Source: Campylobacterales bacterium
GTDB taxonomy: Bacteria; Campylobacterota; Campylobacteria; Campylobacterales; Nitratiruptoraceae
DNA length: 64,000 nt
Direction: 5' to 3'
Assembly: GCA_027082175.1 (NCBI GenBank)
Contig: JALWIX010000013.1
Span: 5,405 to 69,404, forward strand
The notes beneath the pieces are model-generated. The model did no database searches, was not told where the DNA came from, and saw only the letters and a list, made by a program, of their open reading frames with translations. This document shows, in pieces, positions 2,663-37,383 of the stretch. Both the position numbers and the translations under genes were made by a program. Position 1 is the first letter of the stretch. Each line of letters begins with the position of its first letter.

Positions 2663-3283
2663 ATGGTTTTTAGAGACAGATTTGAGGCAGCCGAACTTCT
2701 TGCCGAGAAACTAAAAGATTACATAGACGAAAAAAGCGTAGTTGTGGCTCTTCCACGAGGAGGAGTTCCATTGGCTTTTGTTATTTCCAAAAAGTATCAA
2801 ATCCCTATGGATATATATTTTGTTAAAAAGATTCCTAGTCCCTACAACCCGGAAGCGGCAATAGGAGCTATTAGCGAAGATGGAGATATCTTCACAGACG
2901 AAAAAGCTAAACTTATGCTAAATGTTGCGGATCAATATATAGATGAGCTTGCACAAAAGAAAAAAGAGGAGATGAGAGCAAAAAGAAAGCTCTATAAAAA
3001 AGAGAAAACAGATTTAAAAGGTAAAAATGTTATTTTGGTAGATGACGGTATAGCTACTGGAGCAAGTATGTTTGTAGCGGCAAAATCGATAAAAAATATG
3101 GGAGCGGAAAGAGTCATCATAGCATCTGCGGTAGCGCCTCCAGAAGTTGTCACAAAACTGAAAAAGGTTGCCGATGAGGTAGTTTTGCTTCAAACGCCAC
3201 CAGATTTTATAGCGGTAGGGCAATTTTATCAAGATTTTCATCAATTGAGCGATGACGAGGTAATTGAACTTTTAAGCTTATAG
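2663..3283 (+). CDS. Phosphoribosyltransferase family protein
   Basis: FRDRFEAA, LPRGGVP and VILVDDGIATGASM (PRPP-binding) motifs. Confidence 0.88.
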   Translation: MVFRDRFEAAELLAEKLKDYIDEKSVVVALPRGGVPLAFVISKKYQIPMDIYFVKKIPSPYNPEAAIGAISEDGDIFTDEKAKLMLNVADQYIDELAQKKKEEMRAKRKLYKKEKTDLKGKNVILVDDGIATGASMFVAAKSIKNMGAERVIIASAVAPPEVVTKLKKVADEVVLLQTPPDFIAVGQFYQDFHQLSDDEVIELLSL

Positions 3284-4018
3284 CCGTATTAAAAGGCTTA
3301 AAATCCCGAAATACTCATGCAGCGCCAAATAGGAGTTTTTAAAATTTTTCATCTTAGGGAAAAAAGACCAAAAATCTATCTGCATTTTTGAGCTCTTATA
3401 ATCTGTTTTAGAAGCGGTGACTTTAAAACCAAAATATTTAAAAAGCATATACGCCCGCGGCATATGGTATGCGGAAGTTACAAGATAGATAGAGACTCTT
3501 TTGTTTCTCTTTTTGAAAAGATTATATACATATTTTGCATTTTGATATGTATCTTTACTCAAAGCTTCTATATAGTAGGTTTTCGGCGTAAAATCTTTTG
3601 AATAACGATATCCAAGCCCAAATCCTTCGTTTATCTCTTCGATAACTCTTTTTGCTCTATCGCTCTCTATTCCGCTATAAATTAGTGGGAGATTTTTACG
3701 ATTTGAAAGCATTAAGCCCCAAAGCACTCTCTTCGTTCCATCGCTGCTTAAAGGGAGATTTTTTGCTCCTTTTACCTCCCCTCCTCCCAAAACAACAACC
3801 GCAACTGGATCGGAAGCTTTTGGAAAACTTTTATACTCAAGAGGCTTTAAAAGTAGATTAGGCGCAAAATCGGTAGATAAAAACCAAAAAAATGAAGCTA
3901 AAACAAAAAGCGTTTTTTTAAATTTTTTTGCAAAAAAAGAGGCGGCAAATAGTGCCGCTATAAATATTCCAGGAGGTAGTATCAGATATGTAAATAGTTT
4001 TGAGATAAAATATATCAT
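3278..4018 (-). CDS. YdcF/DUF218 family membrane protein
   Basis: N-terminal TM segments; VVVLGGG, SKDTYQNA, LVTSAYHMPRA and ALHEYFG motifs. Confidence 0.88.
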   Translation of the reverse strand: MIYFISKLFTYLILPPGIFIAALFAASFFAKKFKKTLFVLASFFWFLSTDFAPNLLLKPLEYKSFPKASDPVAVVVLGGGEVKGAKNLPLSSDGTKRVLWGLMLSNRKNLPLIYSGIESDRAKRVIEEINEGFGLGYRYSKDFTPKTYYIEALSKDTYQNAKYVYNLFKKRNKRVSIYLVTSAYHMPRAYMLFKYFGFKVTASKTDYKSSKMQIDFWSFFPKMKNFKNSYLALHEYFGILSLLIRL

Positions 4019-5010
4019 TCTATGATATAGACGCCCTTTTCACCCTCTATCAATTCGCCTAAAATATACCCGTCCGTCTCTTTTAAAACATCATCTACCT
4101 TTTCAGACGAAACCACTAGTATCATACCAATACCCATATTGAAGGTTCTAAACATCTCCTCTTCATCTACATATTTTGAGATAAACTCAAAAATCTCCAA
4201 AGGCTCTATTTGGCTCTTTCTAATAACGGCTTTAACGTTATTTGGAAGGACTCTTGGCAAGTTTTCTACTATACCGCCGCCAGTTATATGCGCTAACGCT
4301 TTTACTTTATCTTTTACTTTTTTAAAAGTTTTGACATATATTTTTGTTGGTTCTAAAAGTACTTCTATCAAAGGTTTTCCGTTAAAATCATGCGAATAGC
4401 TCCACTTTAACTCTTCAAAAAAGAGTTTTCTAACCAAAGAAAAACCGTTTGAGTGAATACCGCTCGATTTAAGAGCTATCAAAACATCGCCCGCTCTTAC
4501 TCCCCTATTTTTTTGAAGTTCCTCTTTTTCTGCTATTCCTACGGCAAATCCTGCCAGATCAAAATCATCCTTTTGATACATTCCCGGCATCTCGGCAGTT
4601 TCACCGCCTATTAGAGCGCACTCACTCTCTTTGCATCCTTTTGCTATCCCTTTGATCACCTCTTTTGCCGCATCTACGTCAAGCTTCCCTGTTGCGTAAT
4701 AATCCAAAAAGAAAATAGGCTCTGCAAAAGAGCAGATAAGATCGTTTACGCACATAGCAACAAGATCAATACCTACCGTATCGTAGATTTTAGACTCGAT
4801 AGCAAGCTTTAGTTTTGTTCCTACACCGTCCGTTGCTCCAAGTAATACTGGATTTTTATATCCTGCAGGCAGAGCAAACGCTCCGGCAAAACCTCCAAGT
4901 CCGCCTATCACGTTTTCGTTAAAAGTCTCTTTCACAAAAGGCTTTATCTCTTCAACCAATCTACTTCCGGCGTCAATATCAACGCCGCTATCTTTATAAC
5001 TTATCTTCAT
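4015..5010 (-). CDS. purM: Phosphoribosylformylglycinamidine cyclo-ligase
   Basis: YKDSGVDIDAG, TDGVGTK, GGETAEMPG, HSNGFSL and HITGGG motifs. Confidence 0.97.
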   Translation of the reverse strand: MKISYKDSGVDIDAGSRLVEEIKPFVKETFNENVIGGLGGFAGAFALPAGYKNPVLLGATDGVGTKLKLAIESKIYDTVGIDLVAMCVNDLICSFAEPIFFLDYYATGKLDVDAAKEVIKGIAKGCKESECALIGGETAEMPGMYQKDDFDLAGFAVGIAEKEELQKNRGVRAGDVLIALKSSGIHSNGFSLVRKLFFEELKWSYSHDFNGKPLIEVLLEPTKIYVKTFKKVKDKVKALAHITGGGIVENLPRVLPNNVKAVIRKSQIEPLEIFEFISKYVDEEEMFRTFNMGIGMILVVSSEKVDDVLKETDGYILGELIEGEKGVYIIE

Positions 5011-5033
5011 CAATTTTCCTTAACTTTTAACTA

Positions 5034-5261
5034 TCAACTCTCATTATCTTCTTTTTTCTTATCCCAATCGCACTTTCCAAAAACTTTGTTAAAAAACCAA
5101 AGACTAGGACAAAAGTTTGTAAAGGCAAATATTATAATCATAACTATTATAAACGTCTGTAACGCGAATCCAATTTTCACAGTCTCAGGATTTGCCAATA
5201 ACCCCATAGATATTCCCAACATTATGGCCATTAATATTCTTTGCGCTTTATCTCCGCACAT
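5034..5261 (-). CDS. Small membrane protein, DUF2892/YgaP-like
   Basis: ATG after an AAAGGAG RBS; two hydrophobic helices followed by FCP. Confidence 0.6.
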   Translation of the reverse strand: MCGDKAQRILMAIMLGISMGLLANPETVKIGFALQTFIIVMIIIFAFTNFCPSLWFFNKVFGKCDWDKKKEDNES

Positions 5262-5507
5262 CGTTTCTCCTTTTATCAAAATTGCTTCAGTGAGAAAATA
5301 GATAAAGAATGAGGAATCTTAAAGTTTTTCTGATTCTAACTAAAAAGTTAAACTTGATTTTACATCTACTTGCAACTCAAAATAGTTATGCCATCCCTCT
5401 TTCTTAACCTAAATTATATCATCTAAGGGCTTAACTTTTTGTTTATTTAATAATCTTGTGATAAAATCAGACAAAAATTATCTAAAATAAACTATATGGG
5501 AGAAGAA

Positions 5508-6347
5508 ATGTGGTTTGAAGAGATTCATAACAACTTTTTTAAACAGGGTATAAAAGTAGAGAAGAAACTTTTTGAAACAGTAAGCAAATATCAAAAGATA
5601 GAGGTTTACGACTCAAAAGAGTTCGGAAAGATTTTGGTCATAGATGGACACGGTATGCTCTGCGAAAAAGATGAGTTTATATATCATGAAATGATGGCTC
5701 ATGTAGCAATCTGCACACATAAAGAGCCTAAAAAAGTTTTAATTATTGGAGGAGGCGACGGAGGAGTTGCAAAAGAGGTCTTAAGACATCCTGGTATAGA
5801 AGTGGATATGGTTGAGATTGATGAAGAGGTAGTAAAGATTTCAAAAGAGTTTTTTCCAAACATCGGAGACTGGGATAACGATAGACTAAATCTTATCATA
5901 GGCGACGGGATAGAGTTTGTAAGAGAAGCGAAAGATAAAAGCTACGATATCGTTTTAGTCGACTCTACCGATCCAGAAGGCCCGGCCGAGGGGCTTTTTA
6001 ATAAAACCTTCTACGCACACATTAATAGAATCTTAAAAGATGACGGACTTGTTGTGGCTCAAGGGGAGAGTTGGTGGATAGATATGCCTTTGCATAAAGA
6101 GATTATGGGAGTAATCGGCGAGTTTTTTAAGATAGTTATGCCATATAGATTTGAGATGTATATGTATCCTGGCTGTAACTGGAACTTTATTTTAGGAAGC
6201 AAATTTTATCATCCTACCGCAGATTTTATTTTGCAAAGAGCAGACCTTATCGATGGTCTTAGATATTACAACTCTGATATCCATAAAGCCTCTTTTATCT
6301 TGCCAAATTACGTAAAAAAAGAGCTCGGAGAACTTTATAAATGGTAA
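5508..6347 (+). CDS. speE: Polyamine aminopropyltransferase (spermidine synthase)
   Basis: SKYQKI, DEFIYHEM, VLIIGGGDGG, VEIDEEV and DSTDP motifs; start could alternatively be 5496. Confidence 0.95.
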   Translation: MWFEEIHNNFFKQGIKVEKKLFETVSKYQKIEVYDSKEFGKILVIDGHGMLCEKDEFIYHEMMAHVAICTHKEPKKVLIIGGGDGGVAKEVLRHPGIEVDMVEIDEEVVKISKEFFPNIGDWDNDRLNLIIGDGIEFVREAKDKSYDIVLVDSTDPEGPAEGLFNKTFYAHINRILKDDGLVVAQGESWWIDMPLHKEIMGVIGEFFKIVMPYRFEMYMYPGCNWNFILGSKFYHPTADFILQRADLIDGLRYYNSDIHKASFILPNYVKKELGELYKW

Positions 6348-6350
6348 AAA

Positions 6351-6420
6351 TTTAGTATATTGTGTATTGGCTTTTATATTTTTTCTAATATATACCAATA
6401 CACAAATACGCCAATATACA
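6351..6420. repeat. Octamer-armed intergenic palindrome, copy 2
   Basis: ttagtatattgtgtattgg ... ctaatatataccaatacacaaatacgccaatataca between speE and coaE. Confidence 0.6.
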
Positions 6421-6443
6421 AAAATATAATTTAAGGTATTTTA

Positions 6444-7058
6444 ATGGAAGCAAAACTTAAGCCTTTTGAGAATGCCATTGCTTTAACCGGCGGTATCGCA
6501 ACAGGCAAAAGTACCGTTTGTAATATTTTAAAACTTTACGGTTTTTCCATAATAGACGCCGATAAAATTGCGCATCAGGTCTTGGAAGAACAAAAGGAAA
6601 AAATTGCCGAAATTTTCGGTAAAGAGTATATAAAAAACGGGAAAGTTGATAGAAAGGCGCTAGGAAACCTTATATTTAACGAGCCAAAAGCAAAAAAGAG
6701 TTTAGAGGAGCTTCTGCATCCTCTTATAAAACAGAAAATCGAAACAGAGTCTTTAAAGCTTGAAAAGTATAAGGTGCCTTATATAGTCGATATTCCTCTA
6801 TTTTTTGAAACAAAAAACTATCCAATCAAAAAAGTCGCAGTAGTTTACGCTCCAAAAGAGATTCAGCTAAAAAGAGTCATAGAAAGGGAAGGATTTAGCG
6901 AAGATGAAGCGAAAAAGAGATTAAAGGCTCAGATGGATATAGAAAAGAAAAAAGAGTTGGCAACCTATGTTATAGACAATTCAAAAGATATTAAACATCT
7001 ACAAAAAGAGATAGAAGAATTCGTAGAAAAGGTAAAAAATGAATTTAGCCAAATATAG
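6444..7058 (+). CDS. coaE: Dephospho-CoA kinase
   Basis: LTGGIATGKS P-loop; IDADKIAH, LHPLI and DIPLFFE motifs. Confidence 0.96.
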   Translation: MEAKLKPFENAIALTGGIATGKSTVCNILKLYGFSIIDADKIAHQVLEEQKEKIAEIFGKEYIKNGKVDRKALGNLIFNEPKAKKSLEELLHPLIKQKIETESLKLEKYKVPYIVDIPLFFETKNYPIKKVAVVYAPKEIQLKRVIEREGFSEDEAKKRLKAQMDIEKKKELATYVIDNSKDIKHLQKEIEEFVEKVKNEFSQI

Positions 7059-7788
7059 CGCAAGCGGGAACGATTTTATTCTTTTTCATTCCTTTGTGGA
7101 AAAAGATAGGAGCAACCTTGCCGTAAAACTTTGCGATAGATTTAGAGGAGTAGGGGCGGACGGATTGATAGTTTTACTTCCATCTAACGAATTTGATTTT
7201 AAATGGCAGTTTTACAACTCTGACGGTAGTGAAGCTAGTATGTGCGGAAATGGGAGTAGAGCCGCTGCCCTATACGCATACGATTACGGATTAGCGCAGG
7301 AAAAGATGCGTTTTTTAACGAAAGCAGGCGTTATTGGCGCTACCGTTGAAGGAAGAGTGGTAGAGAGTAAATTAACCGATCCTATTATCAAAGAAAAAGA
7401 TATTAACAAATTTGGGAAAATATGGTGGCTTATAGATACGGGAGTACCACATCTTATAGCTTTTAGCGATAATTTAGAGGAGTTCAAGATAGATAAAACA
7501 AGAGAACTAAGAAAAATTTACAACGCAAACGTAAATTTGGCACAAGTTAAAGATGGTATAATATATATAAGAACATATGAAAGAGGCGTCGAAGATGAGA
7601 CGCTAGCCTGCGGAACGGGTATGGCCGCGGCATTTTACAGAGCCTTCCTAGAAAATATGGTTTCAAACGAAACAAAAGTTATTCCAAAGAGCAAAGAAGA
7701 ACTTACGCTAAGCTTCAAAGATAATTCACTCTTTTTAAAAGGCGCTGTAAAAAAAGTTTTTGAAACTTTTATAGAGGAGGTTTATTGA
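7039..7788 (+). CDS. dapF: Diaminopimelate epimerase
   Basis: GNDF, GADG, NSDGSEASMCGNG, TGVPH and ERGVEDETLACGTG motifs. Confidence 0.96.
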   Translation: MNLAKYSASGNDFILFHSFVEKDRSNLAVKLCDRFRGVGADGLIVLLPSNEFDFKWQFYNSDGSEASMCGNGSRAAALYAYDYGLAQEKMRFLTKAGVIGATVEGRVVESKLTDPIIKEKDINKFGKIWWLIDTGVPHLIAFSDNLEEFKIDKTRELRKIYNANVNLAQVKDGIIYIRTYERGVEDETLACGTGMAAAFYRAFLENMVSNETKVIPKSKEELTLSFKDNSLFLKGAVKKVFETFIEEVY

Positions 7789-8501
7789 AAAAGTTAGTTT
7801 TAGGCATAACCGGACTATTTATAACAGCTTCCATTTATGCGAACGAGTTTAAAAGCATTCCGAATTGGTATTATAAGATCAAAAATATTTCGGTACAAAA
7901 AGAGAAGTTTTTTGAGATTTTAAGACCGCTCGTAAAAAAAGAGAATCAAAAAATCGTAAAAGAGAGGGAGTTTGTTGAAAATTTTTTCAACGACTATTTC
8001 AAAATGCCTATTTTAGATAAAGAGAGACTAAAAAAATTGGTCTCTTTAGCTAAAAAATATAGAATAAAAAATATTTACGATAAAAAAGAGTATATGAAAA
8101 AAATAGATACAATCCCTGAATCTTTGGTGTTGGCTCAAGCGGCATTGGAGAGTGGATGGGGAAAAAGCAGATTTGCAAGAGAAGCAAATAACCTCTTTGG
8201 AGAGTGGACGTTTGGCAAAAGAGGCTTAATCCCTCAAAATAGAGAAGAAGGGAAAAAACATAAAATCAAAATATTTAACTCAATCTCAGACTCAATCGCC
8301 TCTTATATGTTAAATCTAAACAGACATGCGGCATACAAAGAGTTCAGAACCGCAAGATATCAAGCAAAAATTAATAACGTTCCCTTTACAGGATTAAAAG
8401 CCGCTATGACTATGCAAAGATATTCCGAAATAGGTAAAAAATATAACTTTTTGGTATCATCAATAATAAAAAGAAACAGATTGCATCTTCACGATCTATA
8501 A
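7785..8501 (+). CDS. Secreted glucosaminidase-domain (Bax-like) protein
   Basis: Signal peptide; AQAALESGWGKSRFAREANNLFG and YMLNLNRHAAY motifs. Confidence 0.85.
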   Translation: MKKLVLGITGLFITASIYANEFKSIPNWYYKIKNISVQKEKFFEILRPLVKKENQKIVKEREFVENFFNDYFKMPILDKERLKKLVSLAKKYRIKNIYDKKEYMKKIDTIPESLVLAQAALESGWGKSRFAREANNLFGEWTFGKRGLIPQNREEGKKHKIKIFNSISDSIASYMLNLNRHAAYKEFRTARYQAKINNVPFTGLKAAMTMQRYSEIGKKYNFLVSSIIKRNRLHLHDL

Positions 8502-8511
8502 TCTATAAATT

Positions 8512-9696
8512 ATGAAAAAAATAATCGTCGTTGGAGGAGGTTACGGAGGGTTAAGAGCCGTAGAAAAACTCTCCTCTTCCAACGCTTATGAGATTCTTTT
8601 GATAGATAAAAATAGATTTCATTATCTTCAAACGGAAACTTATAAGTTTCTTTCCGGAAGATTAAATGTCTGCGATATTACTTTTGATCTTGAAAGTTTT
8701 TGCGAATCTTTCAAAAATGTTAAATTTATCAACGATGAAGCTATCGACGTAGATAATAAAAAGAGTCTTTTAATATGCAAAAACGGGTTATATAGATATG
8801 ACTATCTTATAATCTCCGCAGGCGCGAAAGACTCTTTTCCAAAAAGCATAAAAAATCTAGAAAAATACTCCGTATCCATAAAAGATCTCCACAGCGCTTT
8901 TAGATTTAAGCAAAGATTTTTACAAAATCTATTTGATGAAGTTACCTCTTCGAAAAAGTTAGATATAGTAATCGGCGGGGCCGGACTTAGCGGAGTGGAA
9001 CTTGCAGCCGATTTTAAAAGCATATCAAAAGAGTGCGGCAGGGAAGTGGGCCAAAAAACTTTGATGAACGTCACATTGATTGAGGCTTCAGAGACTATTC
9101 TTCCGGGAAACGACGAGTATATTATCAAAGAGACGTACGATAGATTAAAAAAGTTAGGAATAAATATCCTGCTTAACGCTCCCATATTGGAAGTTACGGA
9201 AAATCAGATAATACTCAAAGACAAAAGAGTAGATTACGACAGCTTCATCTTTACCGGCGGTATAGAAGCGAGCGATTTTGTGAAAAACCTAAATTTTCCC
9301 AAAAACTCTAAAAACCAGCTAATAGTAAATAATCGTCTTCAAATAGACGAAAACATTTTCGCCATAGGCGATTGCGCCCAGATAATAAATAAAGAGGGCA
9401 ATATCTTACCCCCTACCGCCCAAATCGCCGAACAAAGCGCAGAATATGTAGCCAAAGTTATCAACGAAGAGACTACAAAAAGTTTTGAGGGCAGAATTTA
9501 CGGTATGTTTATCGCATTGGGAAAAGATTATGCAGTAGGACACATCGCAAATAAGATATTTTTAAAAGGAAGGTTGGCATATCTGGTCAAAATGGTTATT
9601 ACCAAAATATATTTATGGGGAATCAAGATAAAAGTTAACAGCGGTTACTTGAAAAGAAAAGATTATAAACCGGCCTCTTCTATCTTTAAAGCTTGA
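8512..9696 (+). CDS. NAD(P)/FAD-dependent oxidoreductase (type II NADH dehydrogenase-like)
   Basis: [23 protein letters not shown] and PPTAQIAEQ motifs. Confidence 0.88.
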
Positions 9697-10730
9697 TAGT
9701 GAGCTATCAAAGGCTCTATTATCTGATCTAAATCTCCATTTTGCATAATCTCTTCAAGTTTATAAAGAGTAAGCCCGATTCTGTGATCCGTTATACGATT
9801 TTGCGGATAGTTGTAAGTTCTAATCCTTTCGCTTCTATCCCCGCTTCCGACTTGCGCTTTTCTTTCGCTGCTAAGAGCCTCTTGCTGCTCTCTCATCTTC
9901 TGCTCATAGATTCTGGCTTTAAGTATTTTTAGAGCCTTCTCTTTGTTTTTATGCTGACTCTTTTCATCCTGCATAGCCACAACTATCCCGGTTGGTATGT
10001 GAGTGATTCTAACTGCACTATCGGTTGTGTTTACCGACTGTCCGCCACATCCGCTAGAGCGGTAAACGTCTATCTTCAAATCGTTCGGATTTATCTCAAC
10101 ATCGACATCGTCAACTTCTGGCATTATAGCTACAGTAACGGCCGAAGTATGTATTCTCCCTTGAGATTCAGTAGCAGGAACTCTTTGAACTCTATGAGTT
10201 CCTGCTTCATATTTTAATCTGCTATAAACTCCCTGCCCTTTGATTTTGGCTATTAACTCTTTATATCCGCCGGTATCACTCTCGCTGGAGCTTACAATCT
10301 CTACTTTCCATCCCTTAGAGTCGGCATATCTTGCATACGCTTTGAAAATATCCGCAGCAAATAGCGCAGCCTCTTCTCCTCCGGTTCCAGCACGTATCTC
10401 AAGATAGATATCTTTATCGTCATTTGGATCTTTAGGGATGAGTAGTATTTTAATCTCTTCTTCTAGTTTCTCTTTCAGGGGCTCTAACTCTTTTAGTTCC
10501 TCTTTGGCAAGCTCTCCCAGCTCTTCATCTTCCAAAAGTGTTTTATTCTCTTCTATAGATTCAGTAACTTTAAAGTACTCTTTTGCTTTCTCTACAATAG
10601 GCTCAAGTTCAGACTGCTCTTTTGAGAGCTCAGTCATCTTTTTTATATCGCTAGTAATATCTGGAGAGCTTAAAAGAGCATTAATCTCTTCGTATCTTTT
10701 TATAAAGGGTTGGAGTTTCTCTTTTAGCAT
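9663..10730 (-). CDS. prfA: Peptide chain release factor 1
   Basis: [19 protein letters not shown] (PxT) and GGQ motifs. Confidence 0.97.
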
Positions 10731-10764
10731 ATTTTTATTTTAATTTTAGGTTTTTTAATAGCGA

Positions 10765-10785
10765 GCAGAAGCTTATGCAGCTTCT
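10765..10785. terminator. Hairpin overlapping the rpsT stop codon
   Basis: CAGAAGCT-tatgc-AGCTTCTG, a perfect 8-bp inverted repeat. Confidence 0.55.
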
Positions 10786-11045
10786 GTCATAGAATTTACG
10801 AGTTTATGAAGTCTTGAAACTTTTCTTGCAGCGGTATTTTTCTTTAAAACGCCTTTACTTACATATTTGTGAAATTCTCTATTGGCTATTTTCAAAGCTT
10901 CTAAAGCTTTTTCTTTGTCGCCTGCAGCCACGGCTTCTCTTACAGCTTTTGTAATATTTTTAATTCTTGTTCTGTAAAATCTGTTTCTTTGAGTTCTTTT
11001 AGCTGTTTGGCGAATTCTTTTTAAAGCGGATTTATGATGTGCCAT
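10773..11045 (-). CDS. rpsT: 30S ribosomal protein S20
   Basis: [13 protein letters not shown]...[11 protein letters not shown]. Confidence 0.97.
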
Positions 11046-11226
11046 ATTTTTTAATCCTTTTCATTTATTTTAGGTTAGAATGTTACTCAAATATAGTTTA
11101 ATTTTAGCTTAATTTAAATCTTTTTTAAGCTAGTTTCCATTAGATACGACTCTATATTTATTATGTTTTTGTCATTTTATAGTAAAATACATACCTTGAT
11201 ATTGTACAAAAAACAAGGACGTTTAT

Positions 11227-12567
11227 ATGAGACTTTTTGGAACGGACGGAGTAAGAGGAGAAGCAGGTAATTTTTTAACGGCTGAACTTGTTATGAAGCT
11301 TGCAATGAGCGCGGGAATATATTTTAGAAAAAACTCAATAACAAATAAAATTTTAGTAGGAAAAGATACAAGAAGAAGCGGTTATATGATAGAAAACGCT
11401 ATTGTTAGCGGTTTAACCGCCGTTGGGTATAACGTTATACAAATAGGCCCGATGCCCACACCCGCCGTTGCCTTTTTGACAGAAGATATGAGATGTGATG
11501 CGGGTATTATGATAAGCGCTAGTCACAATCCATACTATGATAACGGTATAAAATTTTTTGACCATCTTGGAAATAAACTTCAAGAGAGCGACGAGAGGGC
11601 AATAGAGGAGATATTTGCGAACAAAGAGATAATAGAAGAGAATCAAAAAACCAAAAAAGAGATCGGCTCTTCGAAAAGAATAGACGACGTAATAGGAAGA
11701 TATATCGTTCATATAAAAAACTCCTTTCCTAAAGAGCTTACTTTAAACGGGATGAGAATAGTCGTAGATACGGCAAACGGTGCCGCGTATAAAGTAGCTC
11801 CGACTATATTTAACGAACTTGGAGCAGAGACTATTGTTATAAACGATGAGCCAAATGGTTTTAATATAAACTATAAATGCGGAGCCATACATCCTGAAGA
11901 TTTGGCAAACGTTGTTAGAAAGTATAGAGCGGACATAGGCTTTGCCCTTGATGGAGACGCAGATAGACTTGTCGTTGTTGACGAAAGAGGAGATATCATA
12001 GACGGAGACAAAATTCTAGGCGCATTAGCTATATATTTAAAAGATCGGGAACAACTTAAAAATAGCGCTATTGTAGCAACAGTTATGAGCAATAAAGCTT
12101 TAGAGGATTTTTTGGAGTCTCACGGTATAAAACTTTTCCGATCATCAGTGGGAGACAAGTATGTTTTTGATGAGATAAAAAAACATAATTTAAATTTTGG
12201 AGGAGAAAATAGCGGACATATTATTCTTACGGATTACGGAAAAACGGGAGACGGTTTAGTCAGCGCGCTTCAAATATTGGCTTACATGCTAAAAAGCGGT
12301 AAAAAAGCAAGCGAAGTTTTAAATCCATTTGAGCTATATCCGCAAATTTTGAAAAATATAAACGTAAAAAGTAAAATTCCGCTCGAAAATATAGCAGGTT
12401 TTAAAGAAAAAATTCAAGATATAGAGAAAAAAGGCATCAGAACGCTTATACGTTATTCCGGGACAGAGAATAAACTAAGAGTTTTACTTGAAGGAAAAGA
12501 ACAAAAAGTTTTAGATAAGGAGATGGAAAAACTACTAGAGTTTTTAAAAAAAGAGCTTGATAGATGA
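11227..12567 (+). CDS. glmM: Phosphoglucosamine mutase
   Basis: [27 protein letters not shown] and RYSGTE motifs. Confidence 0.97.
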
Positions 12568-13153: not shown

Positions 13154-13219
13154 GCTAACACACTTTGAAGCTTTTTTCGTTTATGCAAAGCGTAGCAAGA
13201 AGCAGTTAATGAGGATTTA

Positions 13220-13295
13220 GGAATTAGGAATTAGGAATTGGGAATTGATAAGAAGATTTTAATTAACAAATTCCCAATTCCTAATTCCCAATTCC
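13220..13295. repeat. Heptamer-armed palindrome (GGAATTR)4 ... (NAATTCC)4, copy 1
   Basis: Four tandem GGAATT(A/G) units, a 20-nt spacer, then four inverted units; lies just upstream of the thrS RBS. Confidence 0.9.
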
Positions 13296-13314
13296 ATTTT
13301 TTAAAAGGACTTTA

Positions 13315-15662: not shown

Positions 15663-15668
15663 CTTTTA

Positions 15669-15741
15669 TAATTAGGAATTGGGAATTAGGAATTAGCTTA
15701 TTTAAAAAACACAAATTCCCAATTCCAAATTACCAATTACC
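15669..15741. repeat. Heptamer-armed palindrome, copy 2
   Basis: GGAATTG GGAATTA GGAATTA ... AAATTCC CAATTCC AAATTAC CAATTAC between infC and rpmI. Confidence 0.88.
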
Positions 15742-15811
15742 TCTTTATTTTAATCTCCCATTTATAAACTTTCGATATAATATGCACCTTAAATTCTGCA
15801 AAGGAGAAAAG

Positions 15812-21152: not shown

Positions 21153-21517
21153 ACTCATTTTAGATTTATCCCAAGGAAGATCGTTATAAATTCCGTGTCA
21201 GTTGGATAGTTAGATAAAATAAAGAGAAAGGACTGACATGGAAGAATTTGATTTTAACAAAGCAGTAAAAGATTTGCTTGCAGGGAAGAAGATAAGTGGT
21301 AAAGATGGCGTATTAGCTCCATTGGTAAAACAATTAGTAGAGGCTGCCCTTGAAGCTGAGATTGAGTCTCATATAGCCGATGAAGTCTTAAAGGGCAAAA
21401 AGAATCGTAGAAACGGTTACAACAGGAAAAAGATAAAAAGCAGTGACGGGGAGTTTGAGTTAGCTACTCCAAGAGATAGAGAGTGTTCATTTGAGCCTCA
21501 AATCATTAAAAAACACC

Positions 21518-21552
21518 TTCTGCTTGCAGTGATGTGAGCGTAAGCGAAACGA
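21518..21552 (+). mobile_element. 35-bp insertion, copy 1 (REP/MITE-like mini-element)
   Basis: TTCTGCTTGCAGTGATGTGAGCGTAAGCGAAACGA splits the CAA codon of K-H-Q-T-T-I-S-D. Confidence 0.85.
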
Positions 21553-22374
21553 AAACAACCATTAGCGATGAGATAGAGGAAAAAATCTTATCGATGTATG
21601 CTCTTGGGATGAGCTACACCGATATTTCAAAGCATATCGAAGAGATTTATCACATATCTTTATCTACTGCTACAATTAGCAATATCACCGATAAAATTAT
21701 TACAAAAGTCAAAGAGTGGCAACAAAGGCCATTAGAGGCTATATATCCTTTTATCTGGTTTGATGCAATTCACTATAAAATTAAGGATAATGGCAAATAT
21801 GTTAGTAAAGCCGTCTATACGATATTGGGTGTGAATCTTCAAGGCAGAAAAGAGATATTGGGACTTTACCTCAGTGAGAGTGAAGGAGCAAATTTCTGGC
21901 TGCAAGTTTTAACAGATTTAAACAATCGAGGAGTTCAGGATATTCTAATAGCTTCAGTTGATGGGCTTAAAGGTTTTCCAGAAGCTATTAATACGATATT
22001 TCCAAAAACAGAGGTACAATTATGTATAGTGCATCAGATAAGAAACTCTTTAAAATATGTAGCATCTAAGAACCAAAAAGAGTTTATGAAAGATCTCAAG
22101 CTTGTATATCAAGCTATATCCAAAGAAGTAGCAGAAGAAAAGTTAGATAAGCTTGAAGAAAAATGGGGTAAAAAGTATCCCATAGTAATTAACTCTTGGA
22201 AAAACAAGTGGGAGAATCTATCAAACTATTTCAAATATCCTGAACCTATTAGAAAAATCATCTATACTACCAATATCATTGAATCTGTACATAGACAATT
22301 TAGAAAACTAACAAAAACTAAAGGAGCGTTCCCAAATGAAAACTCACTTTTAAAACTGCTATATATGGGCATTC

Positions 22375-22409
22375 TTCTGCTTACAGTGATGTTGAACGAA
22401 GTGAAACGA
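22375..22409 (+). mobile_element. 35-bp insertion, copy 2 (REP/MITE-like mini-element)
   Basis: TTCTGCTTACAGTGATGTTGAACGAAGTGAAACGA splits the CAA codon of G-I-Q-N-V-Q-K-K-W. Confidence 0.85.
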
Positions 22410-22603
22410 AAAATGTCCAGAAAAAATGGACAATGCCAATTAAAAATTGGAATCTGACACTTTCTCAATTGGCTATTTTCTTTGAAGGCAGGCTTGATAA
22501 AGCCCTGGTTATCTAGTTTATAGTATAATTTGAAGGTGACACGGAATTGTGAATATTCTTCTTTAGCCCCGCTGCTACATAGGGGGAGGGGCACTTTTGT
22601 GCC

Positions 22604-24244: not shown

Positions 24245-24256
24245 CTGTTTCCTTTT

Positions 24257-24331
24257 GGAATTGGGAATTAGGAATGGGGAATTTGCGAAAAGTTAATGTG
24301 TACTAGTTCCAAATTCCCAATTCCTAACTAC
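24257..24331. repeat. Heptamer-armed palindrome, copy 3
   Basis: GGAATTG GGAATTA GGAATGG GGAATTT ... TAGTTCC AAATTCC CAATTCC TAACTAC; abuts the mqnD RBS. Confidence 0.88.
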
Positions 24332-24399
24332 TAATATTTATGGATATTTTACTTAAAAAAAGATAAAATATTATTAATTTCTATGATGAGAGGTTTTGA

Positions 24400-37230: not shown

Positions 37231-37297
37231 TAAAAGCCTTTTACAGGTAAATTAATCTTTATAAAATTTATGATATTATAGCACATTAAATATTATA

Positions 37298-37365
37298 GGA
37301 ATTGGGAATTTGGAGTTTGGAAATAGTGTTTTTTTCTAAATTCCCAGTTCCAAATTCCTAATTCC
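37298..37365. repeat. Heptamer-armed palindrome, copy 4
   Basis: GGAATTG GGAATTT GGAGTTT GGAAATA ... AAATTCC CAGTTCC AAATTCC TAATTCC; just upstream of the accB RBS. Confidence 0.88.
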
Positions 37366-37383
37366 AAATAGCAAGGATTAAGA

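Follow-up and report, generated by a model that had tools for sequence, protein, structure and literature searches.

Short hairpin-rich inserts in an IS256-family transposase gene of a Campylobacterales bacterium and in related insertion sequences

The host insertion sequence and its two 35-nt inserts

The window, by which we mean the whole 64-kb stretch of DNA that was analysed, carries on its + strand an IS256-family insertion sequence at 21173..22561 (1389 bp, 70 nt of which are mini-inserts); the rest is ordinary bacterial chromosome, with prfA, thrS, infC, rplT, recA, eno, murB, topA and futalosine genes. As read by eye from the sequence, the ends of the IS are inverted repeats of about 27 bp around AATTCCGTGTCA, and the IS is flanked by an imperfect 8-bp duplication, TTTATCCC (21165-21172) on one side and TTTAGCCC (22562-22569) on the other. 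Its transposase gene is split, both ORFs matching Pfam Transposase_mut, and is composed of three segments, all on the + strand, separated by two copies of a 35-nt element. Segment 1 (21238..21517) contains codons 1-93 and the C of Gln94, and is followed by copy A (21518..21552, + strand, 35 nt, with a GTAA loop, TTCTGCTTGCAGTGATGTGAGCGTAAGCGAAACGA). Segment 2 (21553..22374) runs from the AA of Gln94 through the C of Gln368, and is followed by copy B (22375..22409, + strand, 35 nt, TTCTGCTTACAGTGATGTTGAACGAAGTGAAACGA). Segment 3 (22410..22516) runs from the AA of Gln368 through the TAG stop at 22514-22516. Both copies are on the sense strand of one and the same gene, each placed after the C of a CAA glutamine codon: the target of copy A, called site 1, is CAC-C^AA-ACA (KKH-Q-TT, in the full context AAA-CAC-C^AA-ACA), and the target of copy B, called site 3, is GGC-ATT-C^AA-AAT (GI-Q-NVQKKW). 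When both 35-mers are deleted in silico the three segments join into a single 402-codon ORF with the usual IS256 motifs, the longest open stretch being 407 aa. The match between copies A and B was never reproduced in dinucleotide shuffles of the window. The two 35-nt copies are real, and they render the IS copy of the window non-autonomous. A first reading of the same DNA (the sequence-only reading) had given the span of the second copy as 22375-22410; the left boundary is correct, but position 22410 is the first A of the target and the element ends at 22409.

Two small features of copy A and of its host gene can be mentioned here. Within copy A (window 21532-21537) the upstream ORF stops at a TGA (21535-21537) that shares two bases with the GTG (21534-21536) at which the downstream ORF starts, and this GTGA overlap, which resembles translational-coupling arrangements, may also be due to chance. 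In addition, a 9-mer from the 5' half of the element, TGCTTGCAG, is present once in the native transposase gene (window 21275-21283), in the context GAT TTG CTT GCA GGG and in the reading frame that it has in the element; the only two TGCTTGCA sites of the window are those in the 5' half of the element and in the native gene. The shared 9-mer could be a hint of the origin of the element or a coincidence.

Filled and empty sites in related IS256 copies

Contigs of four DNA runs (X1-X4) from the same hydrothermal-vent metagenomes were placed on the IS. Close relatives of the IS that lack exactly 35 nt at each of the two sites are present in these runs as DNA contigs. Site 1 is empty in the form CAC-CAG-ACA in X1 and X3 (97-98% identical to the window) and CAT-CAA-ACA in X2 and X4, and site 3 is empty in the forms ATT-CAG-AAT, ATC-CAA-AAT and ATC-CAG-AAT. 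The difference between filled and empty alleles is exactly the element, with no target-site duplication. Sequencing depth is higher for the empty forms than for the filled ones, and the element is rare (1-2 contigs per metagenome run). The bulk of related IS256 copies are intact and carry no element, and the most similar intact transposases of the protein collection (402-408 aa) are encoded by empty copies, as are plasmid-borne relatives. Viral contigs and plasmids, when scanned, yielded only chance matches or empty IS copies. The element is an insertion at the DNA level, and the idea that this insertion is mobile is supported because filled and empty alleles both exist as DNA and because the element is found at the same sites in deeply diverged hosts. 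We also observed that both insertion codons are CAG in the closest empty relatives (those of X1 and X3, 97-98% identical), while the filled copies have C[element]AA there (window 21517/21553 and 22374/22410). This could reflect target immunity acquired by a synonymous change, or an insertion event that replaces the AG.

Copies of this element, called type 1, were sought by one pattern scan each of genome and metagenome collections, and further loci were added by protein-guided retrieval. The scans gave six true matches, all on the sense strand inside IS256-type transposase genes, and three sites are used, KK[HN]-Q-TT, EI-Q-RCIVH and GI-Q-N. Site 1, in the wider form KK[HNY]-Q-TT, is occupied by type 1 in the window and in loci L022, L006/L014, L008 and L013 (Nitrosophilus labii); site 2 (EI-Q-RCIVH) in L002/L009 (a Campylobacterales MAG), L005, L007 and probably an X2 contig; and site 3 (GI-Q-N) in the window, L019, P0125, P0241 and an X1 contig. 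The IS itself most resembles copies from Nitrosophilus, Lebetimonas, Hydrogenimonas and Arcobacter, so that its host most likely belongs to the Campylobacterota. The copies of every insert type in the 64-kb window and in the loci retrieved (about 138 kb) are without exception inside IS256 transposase genes. Since 24 of the 1308 CAAA sites of the window are in the IS gene, the probability that both copies are there by chance is (24/1308)^2, about 3e-4. All type-1 copies are sense-oriented and in the codon phase C|AA, a phase that only 5 of the 18 sense CAAA sites in the gene have, and across all insert types every sense-oriented site but one is in this phase. This shared orientation and codon phase hint at a link with translation or RNA that a DNA model does not need.

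The idea that the element never was, or no longer is, mobile in its own right, and that a few ancient insertions have spread only with their hosts, carried along when an IS transposes or is transferred horizontally, or passed from one IS256 copy to another by recombination or gene conversion, has to be weighed against the state of the host genes. Between site-1 host lineages, nucleotide identity is just 66-75% and synonymous sites are saturated. The element of L022 is nevertheless identical to copy A of the window at 35 of 35 positions and occupies the same codon, in a host gene that is 72% identical, and the flanks that touch the two identical elements differ (CACC...AAACAACC in the window, CATC...AAACGACA in L022). 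Similarly, L002 and L005 have a dS of 0.76 and a dN/dS of 0.11, a synonymous rate at which about 35 differences would be expected, and they match at 35/35 positions of type 1 and at 36/38 positions of a second insert. An element that hardly varies among diverged hosts must either have been inserted repeatedly in recent times or be under very strong constraint. This rules out simple decay, as well as gene conversion that includes the flanks: there is no conversion tract, because the flanking bases differ right beside the identical elements. The presence of one element at three different codons, and a C^AAA junction shared by distinct insert types, also argue against purely passive spread. This explanation does agree with the very low copy number, with the apparent vertical inheritance of the site-3 copy B in one IS sub-lineage (window, L019, P0125 and P0241), with the recombination between copies recorded in L019 (see below), and with the fact that no mobilising enzyme was found among the ORFs of the window; all considered, we regard it as unlikely. 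It might also be feared that the inserts are assembly or sequencing artefacts, since metagenome contigs of repeated IS can be chimeric and several contig joins here link non-adjacent parts. The same element with the same junctions was recovered from independent sources (ENA, JGI, NCBI MAGs, Logan, and a run from cultured Nitrosophilus labii), which makes an artefact extremely improbable.

Further inserts were found by aligning IS copies, with the addition of three loci. At least five further kinds of hairpin inserts of 23-46 nt interrupt IS256-family transposase genes, in both orientations, the lengths seen being 23, 35, 38, 40, 44 and 46 nt. Type 2 (38 nt, GTCTGAGCGAAGCGACAACCCCGCAACGAAGTGAGGAC) is inserted in the sense orientation at CAT-C^AA-ATA, and a 40-nt relative of it lies in the antisense orientation at TAC-T^GG. 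Relatives of 35, 44 and 46 nt are present, also antisense, at TTT^GAA (F^EPQ) in L005, L023 and L026; read on their own strand they end ...GAGGAC^AAA and follow a C. Type 4 (23 nt, CTTGTGCTTGCACTCTCTGTGAG) occupies several positions in both orientations, and type 5 (23 nt, GTGACCGAAGGGAACCCATACTT) lies in the sense orientation at site 1 of L025, a gene that without this insert is an intact full-length ORF (407-aa open stretch). These further inserts were located in L002 (1336-1373), L005 and L007 (several in these loci), L006/L014 (two sites), L023 (~3256-3299), L025 (~2736-2758) and L026 (~2615-2660). On the strand of the insert, the junction is nearly always C^AAA, the exceptions being T^AGA, C^AGT and C^GCA. 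A constant length of 3n+2 nt had been considered as a common property and was dropped because of the 36-, 40- and 46-nt members. Literature searches for earlier descriptions turned up nothing comparable to these inserts.

Locus L019 illustrates a further consequence of carrying two copies. Its IS copy (~2770-3310), which lies at another genomic locus than that of the window, has been reduced by internal deletion to a MITE-like remnant of about 540 bp that retains both inverted repeats. Where the deletion closed there is one hybrid element, A-like in its 5' half and B-like in its 3' half. Such a hybrid joint implies recombination between the site-1 and site-3 copies; it shows that a pair of directly repeated 35-mers can recombine, with loss of the intervening 850 bp. 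The L019 contig also carries, at 4602-11882, a Zorya-like defence cluster (ZorA-like, OmpA-like, EH_Signature and SNF2/Mrr helicase-nuclease genes, as named from Pfam labels alone).

Reading frame and folding of the element

The A form, translated in the frame of the gene, reads LLLAVM-stop and then meets a second stop (TAA); in the window, the reading frame of segment 1 enters copy A and ends with LLLAVM* at 21537. The B form differs from the A form in the hairpin 2 region by an added T, a G to A change, the loss of a loop T and a C to T change, and the added T and the lost loop T together remove both frame-0 stops. A B form of 36 nt, whose junction A-run is longer by one A, is translated straight through as LLLAVMLNEVKRK, that is with 12 net extra residues (a 13-residue stretch replacing Gln), in P0125 (otherwise intact, 414 aa), in P0241 and in an X1 contig. 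Copy B of the window, at 35 nt, is one A short of this in-frame length and shifts the frame. The A-run concerned is at the 3' junction of copy B (window 22405-22413), and because 35- and 36-nt forms coexist in run X1 it is possible that it works as a homopolymer on/off switch.

Several properties of the inserts could be taken as signs that they are removed from the RNA or skipped during translation, as a mini-intron, a bypass or 'hop' element, or a -1 frameshift cassette, so that filled genes yield an active protein. The inserts lie in conserved gene motifs, as homing introns do; type-1 copies are all sense-oriented in one codon phase; three of four A-form variants stay at 35 nt via offsetting indels; and after in silico removal of the elements the genes of the window and of L025 are intact, as are those of L008 and L022 to the contig end (L002, L005, L006 and L007 still carry frameshifts or stops). 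We consider this explanation very unlikely, as each of its versions meets difficulties. A bypass of the gene-60 type (T4 gene 60/byp) does not fit because take-off and landing codons do not match (flanks CAC, ATT and ATA against ...CGA AAA) and because the junction is unambiguous. A -1 programmed frameshift can be argued at site 1 alone, where an A-run (AAA AAA C, or U AAA AAA as a slippery sequence) is followed after 7 nt by a predicted 7-bp hairpin and the -1 frame stays open through the element, but there is no slippery sequence at sites 2 and 3, and the 38-nt type 2 has a stop in the -1 frame. A group I, group II or other self-splicing ribozyme intron does not fit in 35 nt, and Rfam gave no family match, copy A having none at E<=10 and the vicinity of copy B only chance-level ones. 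An archaeal bulge-helix-bulge intron does not apply to a bacterial host, identified as such by bL20, RF-1, IF3 and RecA; besides, the exon flanks differ between sites, so that no conserved bulge-helix-bulge can form. Removal at the RNA or translational level also sits badly with relatives that are antisense or have lengths of 3n+1 (40 and 46 nt) or 3n (the 36-nt element of L013), and an element destined for removal would have no need of the stop loss and in-frame read-through of P0125 and P0241. In one wastewater metatranscriptome that holds a related IS, no reads crossed the element. As far as this evidence goes, the element appears to stay in the mRNA. Hammerhead, k-turn and box C/D structures were also considered, for the GUGAUGU...GAAAC motif, and rejected, core positions being mismatched by eye and Rfam giving nothing.

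The sequence-only reading had proposed that the element folds into a conserved Y, made of two hairpins and a terminal stem, with compensatory changes. Part of this was confirmed: in hairpin 1, CTG-CTTR-CAG, copies A and B differ only in the loop, and the G to A and C to T differences in hairpin 2 do affect paired positions, changing a G-C pair of A into an A-T pair of B. The Y itself is more problematic. The stem between the 5' TTC and the 3' GAA can be drawn, and so can hairpin 1, but both use the same C at position 3 of the element, so that the Y cannot have both at full length; the terminal complementarity of the element is 3-4 nt only. Nearest-neighbour folding does not recover the Y, as DNA or RNA and on either strand, with z scores of -0.9 to +1.3 relative to shuffles, keeping in mind that these models miss the extra stability of GCGNAGC/GCGNNAGC mini-hairpins (PMC13037366). 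The unusual stability in single-stranded DNA that had been attributed to mini-hairpins with GNA loops is indeed documented: GCGNAGC, GCGNNAGC and CCGAAGG are ultra-stable, with a Tm of ~76 C, and serve as primase recognition sites (PMC13037366). Motifs of this class are carried by copy A (GCGTAAGC), by the L002 group (GCGTAGC), by type 2 (GCGAAGC) and by type 5 (CCGAAGG), whereas copy B has a weaker, A-T-closed variant, ACGAAGT, and the documented stability concerns other motifs than this one. More generally, the pattern GA-NN-GNA/GNNA-NN-GA is shared by the 40- and 44-nt relatives and by types 1, 2 and 5, and its stem comes in four complementary versions, GC/GC, AC/GT, CC/GG and GCC/GGC.

Variation among type-1 copies does not favour hairpin 2. 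In six type-1 variants it shows one compensatory event against three breaks (C.A in L007, T.T in L013, and GA to AA in L019). Pairs were counted by script, because the MAFFT alignment of the six variants mis-registers copy B, and six variants are too few for a meaningful formal covariation statistic. Furthermore, the minimum free energy structure predicted for the A form is another helix, GCUUGCA-GUGA-UGUGAGC, at -8.4 kcal/mol as RNA, which overlaps both proposed hairpins. This GCUUGCA/UGUGAGC helix and the Y are mutually exclusive, and the helix fits the variation equally well: it absorbs four one-sided substitutions as switches between G.U and Watson-Crick pairs, at the cost of one mismatch and a bulge in the B lineage. 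The same arms, CTTGCA...TGTGAG, around another loop, make up the core of type 4, whose known variants hit one of the pairs. As it needs G.T(U) pairs, it is specific to the sense strand. Another complication is that the A-to-B indels remove both stops, the element being translated in that lineage, so that coding selection confounds the compensatory reading; selection to keep the frame open can account for some of the A/B differences. In conclusion, the Y-shaped fold is a plausible model. The proposal that selection acts on structure is plausible and finds partial support in the hairpin modules, which look selected as their motif recurs across insert types; support within type 1 itself is weak, breaks exceeding compensation there, which is the outcome that the sequence-only reading had named as its refutation. 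The proposal that structure is the signal for mobilisation is likewise plausible but only partly supported, mini-hairpins being known as recognition sites for proteins.

It can also be asked whether the element serves the IS rather than exploits it. It could be a priming or initiation hairpin for copy-out, a self-limiting device that puts the N-terminal DNA-binding part of the transposase and its catalytic part in two ORFs, or a phase switch of the B-form ORF acting through its 35/36-nt A-run. In favour of such a role are the strong conservation of the sequence, the use of GCGNAGC and CCGAAGG as primase/ssi recognition sites, the overlap of the ORF1 stop with the ORF2 start in copy A, and the coexistence in one metagenome of 35- and 36-nt B forms that differ only in the junction A-run. 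A role as a functional module is nevertheless quite unlikely, given that the great majority of related IS256 copies are empty and intact, that the element is found in catalytic motifs (site 2, EI-Q-RCIVH), and that filled copies decay.

A proposed mode of mobility and comparison with known systems

Of the readings considered here we favour, as on balance probable, one that treats the 35-nt element as a non-autonomous DNA insertion belonging, as type 1, to a set of hairpin-rich mini-inserts of 23-46 nt that colonise IS256-family transposase genes in Campylobacterota-type bacteria. Entry takes place between C and AAA, at a few conserved codons, and the insert is present in some and absent from others of near-identical IS copies. 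We propose that the element would be moved in trans by an enzyme encoded elsewhere, which would recognise the folded sense strand. A mini-hairpin of the GCGNAGC type with flanking G.A pairs, together with a second small hairpin or helix, might join the ends of the element, and the approach of the ends would bring the target C and AAA together. The location of all inserts in IS256 genes, with just C^AAA in common, suggests that accessibility rather than sequence sets the target; speculatively, what singles out IS256 genes could be that the DNA of the IS becomes single-stranded, or is occupied by the protein concerned, for instance in the course of copy-out replication or when the transposase acts in cis. 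The enzyme might be HUH-like, or it might be the IS256 machinery itself. No HUH/RAYT gene and no gene for another transposase, a reverse transcriptase or a recombinase was found among the 62 ORFs of the window besides the IS. Two observations argue against parts of this scheme: 1-2 contigs per metagenome is odd for an actively transposing element, and targeting by C^AAA alone explains neither the restriction to IS256 nor the repeated use of the same codons.

The insertion model can be extended, more tentatively, to a view of the inserts as 'nano-transposons', structured DNAs of 23-46 nt that home to conserved codons of IS256 transposase genes. These would be hyperparasites using either the IS256 machinery (the transposase in cis or a single-stranded copy-out intermediate) or a novel hairpin-recognising enzyme, and the IS would escape them by a synonymous CAA to CAG change or by converting the insert into an in-frame peptide. 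This extension is possible but doubtful. The element does look like a parasite of a parasite. If confirmed, it would rank with the smallest bacterial mobile DNAs known to be site-specific, and it would be the first specialised on the transposase gene of another mobile element. It would provide a natural system in which to define the minimum sequence sufficient for mobilisation and a test of whether ultra-stable GNA mini-hairpins act as recognition signals in single-stranded DNA; it would show insertion sequences inactivated, split or internally deleted (as in the L019 remnant) by their own parasites, and it would explain why many gene calls in genomes and metagenomes of Campylobacterota are of a 'fragmented transposase'.

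One comparison is with the palindrome-associated elements (PATEs) derived from IS200/IS605, and with peel-and-paste transposition of single-stranded DNA: there is likewise no target duplication, a short motif lies beside the insertion, and the structure is strand-specific, since in the present element the G.T pairs would form only in the sense strand. However, PATEs are longer than 100 nt and require a defined 4-5-nt target just 5' of the left end, with a related motif for cleavage at the right, whereas the only counterpart here is T^G (mostly TTT^G, on the bottom strand), and the right-end and terminal bases vary between insert types. PATEs have subterminal hairpins at both ends that are bound by TnpA; two small hairpins are possible in the 35-nt element, but its predicted folding is no better than that of shuffles and an alternative helix exists; no TnpA was seen among the ORFs of the window. 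A MITE was rejected, as there is no duplication, only 3-4 nt of terminal complementarity and no similarity to the IS256 ends AATTCCGTGTCA. CRISPR repeats or spacers, integron attC sites, IS91/Helitron elements and mimicry of IS ends were rejected as well, either the junction polarity or the ends being a misfit.

Small repeats known for their hairpins share other traits with the element. The small dispersed repeats of Nostoc-type cyanobacteria, reportedly 21-27 nt long and said to have been described by Elhai et al. in 2008, are also tiny hairpins with filled and empty sites that nest in mobile elements; unlike our inserts they are high-copy, mostly intergenic or in MITEs, and spread beyond one transposase family. 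Mitochondrial double-hairpin elements, GC clusters and byps are 27-80-nt two-hairpin inserts that land in coding sequences and form many sub-families, but they are organellar, and byps are skipped by ribosomes via matched take-off and landing codons, which the 35-nt element does not have. Rickettsia palindromic elements resemble the 36-nt B form, which is in frame and translated in an intact protein (P0125, P0241), a trait shared neither by the 35-nt B copy of the window nor by the A form; in addition, they measure 100-150 bp, occur in many unrelated genes and are always in frame, whereas the A form has two stops. The mini-hairpins of the phage G4 origin and of RSF1010 ssiA match the motif exactly, but those are fixed replication-priming signals and are not mobile. 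Finally, REPs and REPINs are likewise short (20-40 nt), hairpin-forming, non-coding and thought to be recognised as folded single strands. They are, in contrast, extragenic and present in tens to hundreds of copies per genome, while the element is intragenic, with two copies in 64 kb, and restricted to IS256 transposase genes; they bear a GTAG/CGTC tag at one end, whereas the element starts with TTCTG... and finishes with ...AACGA(A), neither of which is such a tag; and they co-occur with a gene for RAYT (HUH Y1), for which there is no counterpart among the window ORFs. We group the element with the smallest hairpin repeats (REPs, cyanobacterial repeats and mitochondrial double-hairpins), from which it differs in being specialised for the transposase gene of a single IS family.

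The window also contains four long intergenic palindromes made of GGAATTR heptads (13216-13301, 15664-15746, 24253-24337 and 37294-37371), for example AGGAATTAGGAATTAGGAATTGGGAATT ... AATTCCCAATTCCTAATTCCCAATTCC. They belong to a repeat family of their own, possibly REP-like or terminator-like, that has no relation to the 35-nt element.
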